Shown: positions 1 through 8,162, counted from the first letter of the stretch. The stretch: 64,000 bases of DNA from an uncultured Chloroflexia bacterium (GCA_963745295.1 CAVUWG010000003.1:541047-605046); one strand, 5' to 3'. Made by a program: numbers and translations. Notes: generated by a model not told the origin, from the sequence alone.

Positions 1-539
1 GCCGCTACGTGGCGACCCGTGGCCTGCAGGGTGTGGAGTTCCTTGGCCGCGTGACCGAGGTGGAGAAGGCCCAGCTCTACCGGACGGCGACGATCTTCGC
101 GACGCCCGCGACCGGCGGTGAATCGTTCGGGATCGTCCTGCTGGAAGCCATGGCCGCCGGAGCGCCGATCGTCGCCTCGGACATCCACGGCTACAAGGGC
201 GTGGTCCGTCGCGGACGAGAGGGCCTCCTGGTCCCGCCGCGCGATCCGAAGGCGCTGGCGATCGCGATCGCGCGGCTCCTCGACCAGCCCGACCTGCGAG
301 CGGAGATGAGCGCCAACGGCCGCCTTCGCGCCGAGGCGTTCAGCTGGCCCCGCGTGACGGCCAAGGTCGAGGAGTACTACGGCTTCGTCATCCGCCGGCT
401 CGCGACCGCCGGCCATCTCCCGGAGGGCTACCGGGCGCCGATCCCTCAGGCGCCCCCACTCCGGGCGAGGCCGTCGGCATCCTCGGCGACACCCGAGTCG
501 CGATCGACCAGCGAGAGTCTCCAGACCCAGGCGGAATAG
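1..539 (+). CDS. Glycosyltransferase family 1/4 (GT-B), C-terminal part; the 5' end lies outside the window
   Basis: ORF 9..539 stays open back to the window edge. The motif FGIVLLEAMAAGAPIVASDIHGY...E is typical of the nucleotide-sugar-binding C-domain of GT4 enzymes. Confidence 0.7.
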   Translation, partial: RYVATRGLQGVEFLGRVTEVEKAQLYRTATIFATPATGGESFGIVLLEAMAAGAPIVASDIHGYKGVVRRGREGLLVPPRDPKALAIAIARLLDQPDLRAEMSANGRLRAEAFSWPRVTAKVEEYYGFVIRRLATAGHLPEGYRAPIPQAPPLRARPSASSATPESRSTSESLQTQAE

Positions 540-3500
540 GCGACCACGAGACACGTCACGACGATCGCCACGATGAGCACGCCGAGCAACGGGGTCAGGA
601 TCGCCATCTCCGCGTTGCGGTCGATCTTGCTGACCGGGAACTGGAACGCGTACAGGTAGGTCGGGATGATGCCCTGGTACGCGTTCACGATGGCGCCCGG
701 CACGGGCAGCGCGGCGATGTTCGGATAGAGGACCACGAACCAGCCGACGACCGCCGCGAGGAACCCGACGACATAGCGACGCGGGTCGCGGCCGCCGACG
801 ACCCCGAGCGCGAGGTAGGCGAGCGGGAGGCCGGCGAGCAGGACGAGCGGCTCCACCGGGATGCTGGTCAGGGTCAGGATCGCGGTGTCGGGCAGCAGCG
901 AGACCGCCACGAACCCGAGCGCGACGGCCGCGCCGGTCAGGAGGATGGGGCGATAGCCGGCGCCCCCGGACCCAGGCGCATCCCGATCGCTCTCGGCGAG
1001 AGCCAGGACCGCCCGCACGAGGAAGAAGCAGCCGATGCCTGCCACGACCGCAAGGCCGGCGGTCCGGGCGGTCAGGACGAAGTCGGGGATGACGGCGGGG
1101 CACGCCTGCGACCCCGGGTTCACCGATTCGACGCCGACGAACCAGCACAGCGGACGCGAGAACAGCCACATCGCGGCCGGCAGGACGATGGCCGCGGCGC
1201 CGCCCAGACGGGCGAGCCGCCAGGTCGCGCGCGACGCCCCGTTCCAGAGCTCGGCCACGAAATAGGCCAGGGCCAGCACCACGAACGGGAGCGCCGTGTA
1301 GTAGTGGTACTGGAAGGCCGCCCGGTCGATGCGTGCCCACGGGATCCACTGGGCGGCGAAGCCGACCATGATCAAGGCCAGGGCCAGGCTGCGGCGACGG
1401 TAGGCCATGACGCTCACGAACAGGAGCGCGGGCACGCTCAGCCACCAGATCACGAGGTTGCCGGCGTCGTAGATGGCGGCCGACGTCCCGGCCCCGAGGC
1501 CCTCCTGGTAGAACCACACGGGCTTGAGGTTGAGCGGCCAGGCCCACCACGGCGACGCGGCGGGGTGTGGCGTCGTGAGGCCGTTGTGGTAGCGGTACAT
1601 CTGGCCGGTCAGGTCCGCGAGCGTCTGGCCGGTGTGGCCCGGCGGCCAGCCGGGGACCAGCTGATGGTTCTCGACCATCGCCCATGGGATGTACGAGACG
1701 ACGTAGATCGCGATCGGGAGCATCGCCAGACAGACGGCCATCCAGACGACCGGCAGGCCGAGGAACGTGCCCGGCCGCAACCAGCCCTCTGGAGGTGGCG
1801 CCGGCGGTTCCAGGCGGTAGGCCGGCTCGTCCGGTCTCGGCGGCGCGGCCAGCGGCCCGAAGCCCAGCCGCCCACCCAGCGTGAACGCCACCAGCACGGC
1901 CAGCGAACCGAGTCCGAGCAGGATGGCCATCCGCAGCGGCGTGAGCGCGAAGCCCCCGACGACCAGCTCGGTGTTGATCCGTCCGAGCGCGACCGAGCCG
2001 AAGAAGACGAGCGCGCCGAGGGCCGCGGGAGCGATCACGGCGAAGCGCATCTCCTCGTCGGTCCAGGCGATCGGGTGGAAGATGGCGACGACGACCGCGG
2101 TCAGCGTCAGGGCGAGCATCACGAGCAGGAACGTGAGGTTGCCGAAGCCCTGGCCCTCGGGCACGCTCATCGCCATGTAGCCGAGGACGCCGGTCAGCGC
2201 GATGAGCCCGAGGATCGCGACCACCCGCCCGAGTGCGCTCCGGACGAGGATCAGCAGCGCGATCCCGCCGATCGCGTAGAGCGCGACCCACTTGCTCGCC
2301 AGCGCGAGCCCGAGCAACGCGCCGATGAGCGGCATCCCCACCCAGAACGCCGCCCGTCCGCGCCACCAGCCCGTCCAGACGGCGGCGAAGACCGTGTAGG
2401 CCGCGACGATGAAGGTGCCGACGTAGATGTCGTTCATGCCGATCCGGGACTGGACGAAGAACATCCCGTCGGCGACGACGAAGACCGCGACGAGCCCAGC
2501 CACGAGGCGGCGCCGGAAGAGGATCCGCGCGAGCAGGTACAGGCAGGCGGCCGTCAGCGCCCCGAGGATGACGCCGGGCATCCGCCAGGCGAACGCGTGC
2601 GAGCCGAGTTCGATCGTCGAGAGGGCCCCGTCGGGATCGAAGACGAGGAGCTCCTGTCGGTCGGTCGAGGGGTAGTCGGCCTCGACGTCGGCCGCCCACG
2701 CGACCGGCGTGAACCCGTCGCCCAGGCGCGCGTCCGCGAAGACCGCACTGCCGTTCGACTCCCCGCTCCCGTGTGGCTCGACGACATAGACCGTCCACGG
2801 GCCGGCCGGGTCCGCACCCGCTGCCGGGATGGGCGCGTCCGGAGCGAGCCCGAGGATGTGGACCATCTGGCTCGCGTCGTCGTACACGACCTTCGTGCTC
2901 GGCCCCGGGAGGGGATGGCTGCCCCGGTCGACGGGGCCGTCCTTGGCGTCGTCGCCTCCGATCGCGAGGACATGGTAGGTGGGCGTCGTGGGGGGGCCGG
3001 CCGTGGCGAACAGCTTCGGGTCCTCCAGCCCGGTCACCTCGGCGAGGCCGTGGGCGCCGCCCTCCATCCCGATGGTGGAGATGACCTTGACGCCGGCCGG
3101 ATCGATGAACGTGACGCCGTCGCTGGTCGCGGCTGCGATCCGCGAGACGTCCTGGATCTCGATGCCGGGCAGGCGCCCATCGGCGATCGCCGTCTCGACC
3201 TTCGCGCGCGTCTCACTGGTGCCGGCGTTCCCGAGGATGACCGTCTCGTCGATCGAGGCGAGGTTCGCCTCGTACTCGGCGGCATCCCCGCCGAGCAGTT
3301 CGGCGAGCAGCGCGGCCTCGGCGGCGGTGTCCTGCAGCTCGTCGGTGTTCGCGACCAGCGTGGAGCCGTTGCCGCCGTCGGCGAGGTCCGCGAGGCCGGG
3401 CAGGTCGAGCCTGCCGGCCGATGTGCCGGTCACGAGGTCGAGGGCCTCGAGGTGGTCGCCCGACCCGACCATGACGGTCGTGCCGTCCTTCGTGACGTAC

Positions 3501-5836
3501 AACAGGTCCACGGCCGTGCCGACCTGGCCGAGGTGTGTGGGCGTGACGCCGGCCGCCGCGGCATCCGGGCCGACCGACGCGAGGCCGAGCGTGGCCACGC
3601 TGCCGTCGTCGAAGCCGGCCAGGAGCTGCTGGCCACTCGAGTCGAGCGCCAGCGCGCTGACGCCCGGTGCCGGGATCGTCGAGATCAGCTCGCGGTTGCG
3701 CAGGTCGTAGCTGCGGATCTCCGACCCGGTCGCGACGTGGAGGCGTTCGCCAGCGCGGCCGCCCGGCAGGGTCGCGTCATCGCGTCGGGGCTCGATGAGC
3801 GTCGCCCGCACGGGCACGCCGAGGTCGCTGGTGGCGCTCACGTCGTCCTCGCCCCAGGCCATGATGCCGAGCGCCATCGCGTACTTGGCCAGGTGGGGGT
3901 GGGTCCACTCGTAGATGTCGTGCGAGAGCCCATACCGCCAGTGCTGGAGGAACTCCGTGGCCGTCCGGGCGTGGTAGACCTCGTCGAAGTGCATCTGGTA
4001 GGGCTCGGGCAGCCGGAACGTCCGGAGCACCAGGCTCGCGACGACCAGGACGGCCAGGATCCACAGGTCCAGGCGGTCGAGGCGACCGCCGCGCTCGCCG
4101 CGCAATGCGGCGCTTCGATCCGGGCGGATGGGCCGCTCGCCAAGACGGTCGCGGAACCAGCCGATCACGCCGCTCTCGGTGATGCCGAGCGGCCTCGACC
4201 AGGTCGGCATCGTCGCGGCCGCGACCGCCGAACCGGACGCGACGGTGGCGACGCCCCCGGAGACGACGACGGACGGGGCGACGGCCGGGGCGACGAGGCC
4301 GACCGGCGCCATCGGGCCCGGCACAGCTGGGCGCTCGGCCGGAGGGGGGCCGCTGTCATCGTCGGCGACCAGTCCATCGATCTCGGGCTCGATCGAGGCA
4401 CGGTCCAGCTCATCGGCCAGCCGGTCGCGTGCGCCGGTCCGGAGCTGGAGCGCGCACCAGGCGAACCCCAGGGCGTGGAGCAGGACCACGAGGGTCACGC
4501 CCGCCTGCGAGCGGATCGCGGGGCCGATCCCCAGCCAGTCGCTGATCGATGGGTTGTCGGGGTACAACGTCGTGAGGACGACGTACATGTTCGCGAACGT
4601 CGCCACGCTCAGGATCACGTACGCGACTCGCCATCGCGGCGAGATGGCGGCGAGGATGACGCCGAGTGCGAAGAACGGGTAGCCGTACCGCTCGTGGACC
4701 CGGGTCGGGAGGATGAAGAACGCGAGCGCGAGCACCGCCAGCCCGACGAGGAGCGTGAGCCGGTCGGGTTCGCGAGCGACCGCCCACAGGACGATGAGGA
4801 ACGCTCCGACGAGCAGGGCGACCCCGATCGCGATGGCCGGGACGACGCCGAAGACGGCGCTCCCGGCCCCGCACTGCTCGGCGCCCAGGGCCGCGTCGCA
4901 GACCCACTGGCCGGTCGCGGCGAGGCCGGCGCCCGTGTCCGAGAGCACGAGCGCCCACGGGTTGTAGGCGTTGACGGTGAGGTACGGGTATCCCCCACCG
5001 GCGACGAAGATCTGCTCGATCAGCCCGATCGGCGTGAGCCCGAACGGGATCGACAGGACGATCGCGGTCGCGAAGCCGGCGATCGCGGTCGTCAGGACCC
5101 GGGCCGGGCGCCAGGGCCGCCCGTCGCCATCGCCATCGACCGGCGGCCAGAACGCGTGCCGGATCGTCACGACCGCGACCAGCGGGACCAGGATGCCGAG
5201 CTGGGGCTTGATGAGCGCCGCGATGACCGTGTAGACGGCCGCGCGCTCGGTCCGGCCGCGCCACAGCTCGCGCAGGCCCAGCAGCAGGAACACGACACCG
5301 AACGAGTCGACCTGGCCCCAGACGATGCTGTCGAACCAGCTGATCGGGTTGGCGACCGCGACGAACGCGGCCGCGAGCGCGAGACGGCGCCGGCCGCCGA
5401 GCTCGAGCACCATCGAATGGACCAGCCAGCCGACGGCGAGGTCGGCGATGAGCGGCGGGATCTTGATCAGGTCGCCGACGCCGCCAACGACCTTCCCGAC
5501 GAGCCCGACGAGCCACAGGACGTACAGGTAGCCGGGCGTGTAGTCGTGGAAGAAGTCCCGCTCGTAGAACCCCCACGGGCCATGGTCGGCGAGATCGGCC
5601 GCCCAGAACCGGAACGCGCTCAGGTCGACGCCGAAGCCGGATCCGGGGAGCAGGTATGCGATGATGAGGCGGAGGGCGAGCCCGAGCGCGAGGACGATCA
5701 CGACCGCGCCGACGGCCCCGCGCATCCCGGTCGACGACGACGGCGTTCGTGTGCCTCGCTCGGTCCCGCCGGATGCGGGGCGGGTCACCGGGAACGGCTC
5801 CTGCATGAGCGTGGAAGGTGGATCGGAGCGTAGCAC
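446..5836 (-). CDS. Giant 1796-aa multi-module GT-C membrane glycosyltransferase: ArnT/DUF2029-like N-module, Pro/Ala linker, PMT (GT39-like) module with DE motif (HFDEVYH), about 470-aa beta-propeller-like insertion, PMT C-terminal 4-TM-like module and further TM segments
   Basis: One continuous ORF with more than 30 hydrophobic helices. FFHDYTPGYLYVLW and HFDEVYHARTATEFL resemble GT-C loop-1 motifs. WFYQEG...AIYDAGNLVIWW resembles the PMT C-terminal module. The exact start is uncertain because the ORF overlaps the divergent neighbour by 18 nt. Confidence 0.75.
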   Translation of the reverse strand: MLRSDPPSTLMQEPFPVTRPASGGTERGTRTPSSSTGMRGAVGAVVIVLALGLALRLIIAYLLPGSGFGVDLSAFRFWAADLADHGPWGFYERDFFHDYTPGYLYVLWLVGLVGKVVGGVGDLIKIPPLIADLAVGWLVHSMVLELGGRRRLALAAAFVAVANPISWFDSIVWGQVDSFGVVFLLLGLRELWRGRTERAAVYTVIAALIKPQLGILVPLVAVVTIRHAFWPPVDGDGDGRPWRPARVLTTAIAGFATAIVLSIPFGLTPIGLIEQIFVAGGGYPYLTVNAYNPWALVLSDTGAGLAATGQWVCDAALGAEQCGAGSAVFGVVPAIAIGVALLVGAFLIVLWAVAREPDRLTLLVGLAVLALAFFILPTRVHERYGYPFFALGVILAAISPRWRVAYVILSVATFANMYVVLTTLYPDNPSISDWLGIGPAIRSQAGVTLVVLLHALGFAWCALQLRTGARDRLADELDRASIEPEIDGLVADDDSGPPPAERPAVPGPMAPVGLVAPAVAPSVVVSGGVATVASGSAVAAATMPTWSRPLGITESGVIGWFRDRLGERPIRPDRSAALRGERGGRLDRLDLWILAVLVVASLVLRTFRLPEPYQMHFDEVYHARTATEFLQHWRYGLSHDIYEWTHPHLAKYAMALGIMAWGEDDVSATSDLGVPVRATLIEPRRDDATLPGGRAGERLHVATGSEIRSYDLRNRELISTIPAPGVSALALDSSGQQLLAGFDDGSVATLGLASVGPDAAAAGVTPTHLGQVGTAVDLLYVTKDGTTVMVGSGDHLEALDLVTGTSAGRLDLPGLADLADGGNGSTLVANTDELQDTAAEAALLAELLGGDAAEYEANLASIDETVILGNAGTSETRAKVETAIADGRLPGIEIQDVSRIAAATSDGVTFIDPAGVKVISTIGMEGGAHGLAEVTGLEDPKLFATAGPPTTPTYHVLAIGGDDAKDGPVDRGSHPLPGPSTKVVYDDASQMVHILGLAPDAPIPAAGADPAGPWTVYVVEPHGSGESNGSAVFADARLGDGFTPVAWAADVEADYPSTDRQELLVFDPDGALSTIELGSHAFAWRMPGVILGALTAACLYLLARILFRRRLVAGLVAVFVVADGMFFVQSRIGMNDIYVGTFIVAAYTVFAAVWTGWWRGRAAFWVGMPLIGALLGLALASKWVALYAIGGIALLILVRSALGRVVAILGLIALTGVLGYMAMSVPEGQGFGNLTFLLVMLALTLTAVVVAIFHPIAWTDEEMRFAVIAPAALGALVFFGSVALGRINTELVVGGFALTPLRMAILLGLGSLAVLVAFTLGGRLGFGPLAAPPRPDEPAYRLEPPAPPPEGWLRPGTFLGLPVVWMAVCLAMLPIAIYVVSYIPWAMVENHQLVPGWPPGHTGQTLADLTGQMYRYHNGLTTPHPAASPWWAWPLNLKPVWFYQEGLGAGTSAAIYDAGNLVIWWLSVPALLFVSVMAYRRRSLALALIMVGFAAQWIPWARIDRAAFQYHYYTALPFVVLALAYFVAELWNGASRATWRLARLGGAAAIVLPAAMWLFSRPLCWFVGVESVNPGSQACPAVIPDFVLTARTAGLAVVAGIGCFFLVRAVLALAESDRDAPGSGGAGYRPILLTGAAVALGFVAVSLLPDTAILTLTSIPVEPLVLLAGLPLAYLALGVVGGRDPRRYVVGFLAAVVGWFVVLYPNIAALPVPGAIVNAYQGIIPTYLYAFQFPVSKIDRNAEMAILTPLLGVLIVAIVVTCLVVAYSAWVWRLSLVDRDSGVAEDADGLARSGGA

Positions 5837-7395
5837 AGGGTCGCCGGACGAGCCCCTCGGACCTGCTGCCGGTCATCGCCGTGGCGGTGGTCGCGTTCGT
5901 GGCCGCCCGGCTCGCCCTGCTGCCCGGCGTCGCGTTCTGGGACACGGGGGAGTTCCAGACCGTCGGACCGATCATGGGCACGGCGCATCCGACGGGCTTC
6001 CCGACCTACGTCCTGCTGGGCTGGCTCGCCTCGGTCGTCCTCCAGCCATTCGGCGACCCGGCGTTCCGGATGAACCTGTTGTCGGCGATCTGCCTGGCGG
6101 TCGCCGCCGGTGTCACGGTCGATCTGGTCCGGGCCCTGACCGGCTCGGTCGCGCTGGGGATGGTGGCCGGGCTCGGGCTCGCCCTCACGCCGATCGCGTG
6201 GGCCATCGGCACGCATGCCGAGGCGCACGCGCTGCACATCGCGCTCCTGGCGGTCCTGCTCCGACTGCTCGTCGCCTGGGAGGACCGTGCCCGCGGCCCC
6301 CGATCGGGCGATCACGCGGACCGCTACCTGGTCGGCGCGTCGGTCGTCTTCGCGTTGTCGGTCGGCAATCACTCGCTGACGCTCCTGCTGGCCGTGCCCG
6401 TCGGCCTGTTCGTGCTTGCCGTGGCCCCCGACATCTGGCGACGGCCCCGGCTCGTCATCGCGTGCGTGGCCGCGCTGGCGATCACGCTCGTCGTCGTCTA
6501 CCTGGAGCTGCCGCTGCGGGCCGGCCCGTTCCGGGCCGGGCTGGTCTATGGACGGCCGGAAACGTGGGAAGGTTTCTGGTACGTCGTGCTCGCGGAGCAG
6601 TTCCGCGGCAGCCTGCTCGACCCGTTCGGCGACCTGACGGGCAAGGTCGGGCAGCTCGCCACACTGACGTACCGGCAGTTCGGGCTCCTCGCGCCCCTGA
6701 TCCCGGTCGGTTTCGTGGCGACCGTCATGCGCCGGCCACGCTACGCCCTCCTCACCGGGTCGGCGCTCCTCATCACCTGCTTCTTCGCGGCCTCGTACGT
6801 CAACGCCGACATCAACCGCTACTACCTGGGGCCGATCCTCATCGCCTGGACGTGGCTCGCGATCCTGGCCGCCATGGTCGCCGAGGCGGTCGCCGCGAAC
6901 ATGGGTCTGGGGGTCCCGGCCGGAGCGGACGGCGACATGGCAGCCCGCGGCTCGGCCCGGGCCGCGCTGCCGGTGGCCCTGCTCGCCGCCCTGATGCTGG
7001 CCCCGACGCTCCTGGCCATCCCCAACCGCCTCGCAACGGTCGACGAGAGCCGCGACCGCCTCGCGGGCGCCTGGCTGGATCGCGTCCTGCCATTGCTGGA
7101 GCAGGACGCGGTCGTCGTCTCCTGGTGGAGCTACTCCACGCCGCTCTGGTACGCCCAGAAGGTCGAAGGTCGTCGGCCTGATATCTTCATCGCCGACGAC
7201 CGGACACGCCTCGACCTGGGCATGGGCGACCCGTCGGACGTCATCGACGCCAACCTTGGCCAGCGTCCCGTGTACGTGCTGCGCCAGAACCCGGCCGATA
7301 TCGACGAGCTCGCCCGCCGCTATGAGCTCGAGACCCTCACGTCACAGGAGGCAGGTTTGCTGGTCCGCGTGGTCGGCCCCCGAGCGGCGACATGA
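5818..7395 (+). CDS. DUF2723 (TMEM260-like, GT-C) membrane protein, candidate protein O-mannosyltransferase
   Basis: N-terminal WDTGEFQTVGPIMGTAHPTGFPTYVLLGW matches the DUF2723 signature. About 11 predicted TM helices. Divergent from the giant GT and translationally coupled to the downstream GT2 by an ATGA overlap. Confidence 0.65.
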   Translation: MDRSVAQGRRTSPSDLLPVIAVAVVAFVAARLALLPGVAFWDTGEFQTVGPIMGTAHPTGFPTYVLLGWLASVVLQPFGDPAFRMNLLSAICLAVAAGVTVDLVRALTGSVALGMVAGLGLALTPIAWAIGTHAEAHALHIALLAVLLRLLVAWEDRARGPRSGDHADRYLVGASVVFALSVGNHSLTLLLAVPVGLFVLAVAPDIWRRPRLVIACVAALAITLVVVYLELPLRAGPFRAGLVYGRPETWEGFWYVVLAEQFRGSLLDPFGDLTGKVGQLATLTYRQFGLLAPLIPVGFVATVMRRPRYALLTGSALLITCFFAASYVNADINRYYLGPILIAWTWLAILAAMVAEAVAANMGLGVPAGADGDMAARGSARAALPVALLAALMLAPTLLAIPNRLATVDESRDRLAGAWLDRVLPLLEQDAVVVSWWSYSTPLWYAQKVEGRRPDIFIADDRTRLDLGMGDPSDVIDANLGQRPVYVLRQNPADIDELARRYELETLTSQEAGLLVRVVGPRAAT

Positions 7396-8162
7396 CCCGG
7401 GTCGAACGACTGTCGTACTTCTTCCCGGCCCACAACGAGGAAGCCAACATCGAGGGTCTCGTGGCCGAGGCGCTCGCGACGCTGCCATCGCTCGCGGACC
7501 GCTTCGAGATCATCGCCGTCGACGACGGGTCGCGCGATGCCACCGGCCGCCTGGCCGACGAGCTCGCGGCGCGGCATCCGGACGTCGTCCGTGTCGTCCA
7601 CCACCCCACCAACCTCGGCTACGGCGCGGCCCTGCGGTCCGGCTTCACGGCCGCGCGCTACGACCTCATCGCGTTCACCGATGGCGATCGCCAGTTCAAG
7701 GTCGAGGACATCGGCCGACTGACCGCCCGCTCCGCCGAGCCGGACGCCCCGGACGTCGTCCTCGGATTCCGGATCCAACGGGCGGATCCGCCCATCCGGC
7801 TCGCCTATGCCCGGATCTACCGGCTCGCGAATCGGACCTTCTTCGACCTCCAGGCGACCGATGTCGATGGGGCCTGCAAGCTGTTCCGGCGAGCGGCCCT
7901 CGAGGATGTCCGCGTCGAATCGGATGGCGCGTTCTTCTCGGCCGAGCTCCTGATCAAGCTGCGCGAGGCCGGGCGCACCGTCGTCGAGGTCGGCGTGCCG
8001 CACTACCCGCGGACGGCCGGCTCGCCGACCGGGGCGCGGCCGTCGGTCATCCTGCGCGCCGTGCGCGACTTCTGGCGGCTGCGGCTGCATCTCTGGGTGA
8101 ACCGGCGACGGGCGCTGCGGCGCGGCGAACCCATCCTCGCCGACCGGCCGAGGGTCGACTAG
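7392..8162 (+). CDS. GT2 polyprenol-phosphate mannose synthase-like (Ppm1/DPM1-like) glycosyltransferase
   Basis: YFFPAHNEEANIEGLV...IIAVDDGSRD...TNLGYGAALRSGF...FTDGDRQF are GT2 motifs including DXD. Size is 256 aa. Confidence 0.75.
   Translation: MTRVERLSYFFPAHNEEANIEGLVAEALATLPSLADRFEIIAVDDGSRDATGRLADELAARHPDVVRVVHHPTNLGYGAALRSGFTAARYDLIAFTDGDRQFKVEDIGRLTARSAEPDAPDVVLGFRIQRADPPIRLAYARIYRLANRTFFDLQATDVDGACKLFRRAALEDVRVESDGAFFSAELLIKLREAGRTVVEVGVPHYPRTAGSPTGARPSVILRAVRDFWRLRLHLWVNRRRALRRGEPILADRPRVD

Follow-up and report, generated by a model that had tools for sequence, protein, structure and literature searches.

A gene for a fusion of two GT-C modules with a beta-propeller inserted in external loop 1 of the PMT-type module in an uncultured Chloroflexia bacterium

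Does a very long reading frame in a high-GC metagenomic assembly encode one protein, and what would an enzyme of such composition do? The question is raised by a 64,000-nucleotide stretch of DNA from an uncultured Chloroflexia bacterium (the window). A preliminary description of the window had read one of its ORFs as a fusion of two GT-C modules with a propeller-like domain inserted into the DE-motif loop of a PMT. The ORF (446..5836, minus strand; stop codon at 446-448) begins with GTG and encodes 1796 aa, which comprise an ALG6/GT87-like GT-C module, a linker and a GT39/PMT module with a propeller in external loop 1. Here we describe the integrity of this gene, the parts of its product and the functions that they suggest.

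Integrity of the gene

Codon-position GC identified the minus frame as the coding frame (GC3 0.94, GC2 0.51). An ORF of 1509 aa on the opposite strand was rejected as a high-GC shadow with a high content of R, D, E and G. More than 120 full-length homologues of the product (1750-1860 aa, 60-99% identity) were found in Chloroflexota MAGs, and thus the ORF is neither a chance occurrence nor an indel artefact. The three-part architecture is kept in all these homologues and also in representatives down to 35-40% identity. These results confirm that 446..5836 on the minus strand is one real gene of ∼1,780-1,796 aa, continuous as first described. The true start is likely the GTG at 5786-5788 (aa 17), since the homologues begin with MTGPASGG or MTRPASGG (MTGPASGGTERGTGAPSR). 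It opens an N-terminal cytoplasmic tail (5726..5788, minus strand) that is conserved and predicted to be disordered (TRPASGGTERGTRTPSSSTG); pLDDT was below 50 over model residues 1-20.

We also compared the related loci. In close relatives the N-terminal and PMT halves lie in one gene at four of seven loci, and the ORF is broken at the other three. At L002 a 1-nt indel within conserved coding sequence accounts for the break. At L006 and L007 several genes are broken internally, with breaks inside the insert and inside neighbouring genes. The expectation that the halves are not separate genes in relatives is borne out, but has to be qualified for L011, a distant relative in which the N-module and the PMT part are called as two overlapping adjacent genes and may be so; the possible split is located in the Pro/Ala-rich linker. 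Two stand-alone halves proved to be apparent only: P0143 is cut off where its contig ends, and P0249 runs into a scaffold gap of 100 N.

Modules of the protein

The N-terminal GT-C module (4427..5725, minus strand; aa 38-470) had been called ArnT-like, but it resembles ALG6, PIG-M, PIG-U and GT87 instead. Its model shows an ALG6/ALG3/PIG-M/PimE-like GT-C fold, with ALG6, ALG3, PIG-M (GPI mannosyltransferase I), PimE and PIG-U as the closest folds; sequence identity to ALG6 (GT57), ALG3, GPI mannosyltransferase I and PimE (GT87) is 11-16%. The query module gave no Pfam match above threshold and no match to PF09594 (GT87), and the homologue P0107 scored 28.5 bits with PF09594 versus a cut-off of 25. 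Since weak Pfam matches among 18 diverse members are divided among Alg6_Alg8 (6/18), PIG-U (5/18) and GT87 (5/18, at E<=0.01), the module looks like a separate family within the group of ALG6, ALG3, GPI mannosyltransferase I and PimE. Asp71 (in GVDLSAF), where the first EL1 helix begins in the model, is conserved in 120 of 120 aligned homologues, and K210 (in KPQ) and H381 (in PTRVHERY) are invariant in all 121 sequences. Many polar or aromatic loop residues are likewise invariant in members down to 34% identity, and conservation of the module is at the level of the PMT core. In PimE, catalysis depends on the Asp D58, which is placed at the tip of juxtamembrane helix 1, and K195 and H322 are phosphate ligands (PMC12041525). 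D71, K210 and H381 lie at similar positions, the two sets being matched by linear position only.

A Pro/Ala-rich, poorly conserved linker follows (4085..4426, minus strand; aa 471-584). Its conservation falls to 20% across aa 501-550, and it has a conserved Arg-rich end before PMT TM1. We infer that the linker is cytoplasmic.

The PMT module starts with TM1, followed in external loop 1 by the DE motif (D618-E619, nt 3980-3985) and a juxtamembrane helix, HPHLAKYAMALG (3848..4084, minus strand). This segment aligns to residues 51-106 of yeast Pmt4, and aa ∼597-656 weakly match positions 3-59 of the Pfam PMT profile (E 0.05). HFDEVYHA is found at aa 616 and HPHLAKYA at aa 646; the DE motif HFDEVYH (aa 616-622) aligns with the DE of yeast Pmt4, and D618 and E619 are invariant in 121 of 121 sequences. 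The transmembrane core from TM2 onward (1619..2590, minus strand; aa 1083-1406; Pmt4 residues 139-253) matches Pfam PMT (PF02366) at aa 1081-1198 with 40.5 bits (cut-off 22.7). It carries the EL2 motif SRIGMND, in which R1131 and D1136 (the Rx4D motif) are invariant in the 121 sequences. The PMT_4TMC region (1142..1618, minus strand; aa 1407-1565) scored 66.2 bits with PF16192 (cut-off 32.4). It includes the Rx2F motif R1505-F1508 (RIDRAAFQYHYY), whose columns are at least 90% conserved, and aligns to Pmt4 residues 551-614. With both the PMT and the PMT_4TMC domain above gathering thresholds, the C-terminal module is classed by sequence as GT39/PMT-type, and together with the fold of the N-module this bears out the fusion of two GT-C modules.

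In M. tuberculosis PMT, D74, D176, R441 and Y444 are essential by mutagenesis (PMC12331936). The putative counterparts of D74, D176 and R441/Y444 are D618, D1136 and R1505-x2-F1508, assigned by motif and Pmt4 alignment rather than by structural superposition. The NCBIfam equivalog PrMnsylTfPmt missed its threshold with 53.3 bits versus a cut-off of 800. Consequently, the protein is not an orthologue of actinobacterial Pmt but belongs to a distant GT39-like lineage. Downstream of PMT_4TMC, a family-specific C-terminal extension (449..1141, minus strand; aa 1566-1796) has ∼5 TM helices predicted by hydropathy and the conserved motif YPNIAALPxPxxxVNAYQGIxPTYLYAFQFPV. It gave no Pfam match, and at 231 aa it is shorter than the ∼280 aa first reported.

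The propeller insert was located by the alignment to yeast Pmt4, which aligns on both of its flanks. The insert comes after both the DE motif and the juxtamembrane helix (HPxxAK) and ahead of TM2, between Pmt4 residues 106 and 139, so that the placement in loop 1 just past the DE motif is upheld. In place of ∼32 residues of external loop 1 there are ∼420 aa (2591..3847, minus strand; aa ∼664-1082), a long soluble insert as had been proposed, but not one of ∼470 aa. The AF2 model of the insert (pLDDT 93.8, pTM 0.91) has 28 propeller strands that make up seven blades, a closed toroid of 4-stranded blades of the WD40 type. Foldseek with this model gave 1,405 PDB matches at E<=1e-3, and among the matches listed 50 of 50 were beta-propellers, in agreement with the preliminary description. 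Tup1, PRL1, TLE1 and WDR5-like propellers were matched, with TM-scores (target-length normalised) of up to 0.75. At the level of sequence, the insert profile weakly matched the WD40 proteins Utp17 and Utp4 in the PDB (E 4e-4), and the Pfam WD40 match was weak (E 0.05). A disordered region or a MIR trefoil was ruled out by the confident propeller model and the Foldseek result.

The insert is acidic (63 D+E versus 21 K+R), and 397 clusters at 50% identity match it. An alpha/beta subdomain of ∼60 aa (3164..3346, minus strand; aa 831-891), identified from the secondary structure of the model, sits on a long beta-hairpin that connects propeller strands 14 and 15; the subdomain has a weak profile match to residues 70-163 of 4ovd, a peptidoglycan glycosyltransferase chain (E 2e-4). 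Hydropathy detected no hydrophobic segment in aa 611-1085. Because Arg-rich flanks occur before TM1 and after TM2 of the PMT module, the insert is predicted to lie outside the cytoplasm, as first proposed.

Comparison with known systems

Pull-downs with M. smegmatis Pmt recovered a GT87-like GT-C protein and a periplasmic beta-propeller (bioRxiv 10.64898/2026.07.15.738315, a July 2026 preprint). The mycobacterial PMT holo-complex proposed there consists of Pmt/Rv1002c (GT39), the GT87-like Rv0051, the periplasmic beta-propeller Rv3212 and two copies of Rv1209, with the Rv3212 propeller placed by modelling right over the DE site (10.64898/2026.07.15.738315). This preprint is the single source for the holo-complex. 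The parts match those of the present protein: a GT39 module with DE motif, a second GT-C that resembles the GT87/PimE group and an extracytoplasmic propeller at the DE site. They are separate subunits in the complex proposed for mycobacteria, whereas in Chloroflexota they co-occur in one polypeptide, with the propeller attached at one end to the EL1 juxtamembrane helix and at the other to TM2. The propeller has seven blades and is spliced into external loop 1, while Rv3212 has eight blades and is a separate protein. Putative catalytic residues are kept in the second GT-C but, by the description in the preprint, absent from Rv0051. Where the proposed mycobacterial complex has the DivIVA-like Rv1209, the present protein has its C-terminal extension. 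The likeness of the propeller and the N-module to Rv3212 and Rv0051 may be analogy rather than homology.

Translational GT39-GT87 fusions are also found in Paenibacillus (UniProt V9WAU2; 10.64898/2026.07.15.738315). The union in one chain of a GT39 module with a second GT-C, of GT87 type there and GT87-like in the present protein, is common to both; compared by description, the protein studied here has a propeller and none is mentioned for V9WAU2 in the preprint. With eukaryotic PMT1, PMT2 and PMT4 and with M. tuberculosis PMT, the protein has in common the DE motif in EL1, the EL2 Asp of Rx4D, Rx2(Y/F) and PMT_4TMC, as well as, in concept, an accessory domain outside the cytoplasm for acceptor selection. 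Sequence similarity is low, however, and the present protein has extra TM helices and the C-terminal extension. The accessory domain also differs, being a beta-trefoil MIR domain in eukaryotic PMTs, a WW-like motif in EL4 in M. tuberculosis PMT (PMC12331936) and a beta-propeller in EL1 in the present protein.

Proposed function and alternatives

On balance, we lean towards a self-contained, single-chain bacterial protein O-glycosyltransferase holoenzyme of the GT39 type, probably a mannosyltransferase. We know of GT39 enzymes only as protein O-mannosyltransferases. From the conserved residues, the PMT module would use a polyprenyl-phosphate-sugar as donor and attach its hexose to Ser/Thr hydroxyl groups of exported proteins, with Asp618 in the DE motif serving as catalytic base. 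The donor would probably be made by a neighbouring GT2 (7392..8162, plus strand; Pfam Glycos_transf_2) that resembles polyprenyl-phosphate-sugar synthases; among NCBIfam models it scores best with PpgS, ArnC and dolichyl-phosphate hexose transferase, without reaching the cut-off of any of them. A GT2 of this kind is always near the gene in related loci. The divergent neighbour, a TMEM260-like (DUF2723) GT-C (5818..7395, plus strand; Pfam PF11028, E 5.7e-24), is syntenic in all of them. MIR domains have been proposed to select or gate acceptor substrates in eukaryotic PMTs, and a corresponding role has been proposed for the Rv3212 propeller of mycobacteria. The propeller would have a similar role on the outer membrane face, directly above the catalytic pocket; since both of its ends are anchored a few residues from the DE loop and TM2, connectivity would oblige it to sit over the pocket. 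The N-terminal ALG6/PimE-like GT-C, joined through the cytoplasmic linker, would be an intramolecular partner comparable to Rv0051 or yeast Pmt2. Because the Asp/Lys/His set is kept, the module probably has its own active site, and it may extend the first sugar.

The acceptor could instead be a lipoglycan, a real rival because the gene lies in a conserved cluster with PIM-type phosphatidylinositol genes. The window edge cuts a convergent GT4 glycosyltransferase, of which the C-terminal part is present (3..539, plus strand; Pfam Glycos_transf_1). In relatives this GT4 heads a PI/PIM-type operon, which at L001 and L008 contains PHP_C, two PIM-acyltransferase-like genes, Ino1 and PIP synthase. 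Both acyltransferases have PIM acyltransferase as their best NCBIfam match (E 2e-37 and 9e-35). Synteny with GT4, PHP_C, the two acyltransferases, inositol-3-phosphate synthase and PIP synthase is kept in relatives of 37% to 90% identity, and this fits a glycolipid acceptor equally well. Both GT-C modules would then elongate a PI-anchored glycolipid (PIM or lipomannan-like) of the adjacent operon on the outer face, using polyprenyl-phosphate-sugar from the GT2, and the part of the propeller would be to bind the elongating glycan or to guide it, in the manner of the carbohydrate-binding modules in Emb/AftD. Lipid-linked glycans are the substrates of all the closest folds of the N-module (ALG6, ALG3, GPI mannosyltransferase I and PimE), and some members match Pfam GT87. 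However, the C-terminal module combines the GT39-specific pair of PMT and PMT_4TMC with a complete set of the residues of the PMT catalytic site, and the three-part composition matches a complex proposed for protein mannosylation. The GT4/PI operon is convergent with the gene and not co-transcribed, and the region is near the replication origin, where gene order is suspected to be unusually stable; for these reasons the synteny may be weak evidence. We regard a lipoglycan acceptor as possible but not probable.

Somewhat less likely still is a protein O-glycosyltransferase whose N-terminal GT-C is a pseudo-glycosyltransferase, without catalysis of its own, that serves only as a scaffold by dimerising with and stabilising the PMT module as proposed for Rv0051. 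The GT87-like partner of Pmt is described as having no catalytic residues and yet as needed for activity (10.64898/2026.07.15.738315), and PIG-U, a non-catalytic GT-C fold, ranks with the closest matches both by fold and in Pfam. Evidence against a scaffold is the retention of D71 in every aligned homologue, the invariance of K210, H381 and the loop residues, and conservation as strong as that of the PMT core; the pattern is that of an active GT-C such as PimE (PMC12041525). As for an artefact, whether an assembly chimera or an indel-caused read-through of two or three genes in a high-GC MAG, the broken ORFs and the two gene calls at L011 would fit it, but the breaks at L002, L006 and L007 are not at domain boundaries, P0143 and P0249 are truncated and the full-length homologues are independent and from several sources, so that this explanation is for practical purposes already refuted.

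With its three parts in one chain, the family adds fusion-based support for the proposed mycobacterial PMT complex, and the protein is of interest as a structural target. A more far-reaching possibility, which we consider doubtful, is a 'prime-and-extend' glyco-machine with two active sites that links protein O-glycosylation to a PIM/lipomannan-like PI glycolipid pathway in Chloroflexota. The GT39 module and the propeller would choose the acceptor, and a catalytically competent ALG6/PimE-like module would add sugars. If this is true, then with the adjacent PgsA, Ino1, PatA-like and GT4 genes it would mean an actinobacterial-style envelope of mannolipids and mannoproteins in a second phylum, and the unit of GT39, GT87 and propeller would be ancestral rather than specific to mycobacteria.

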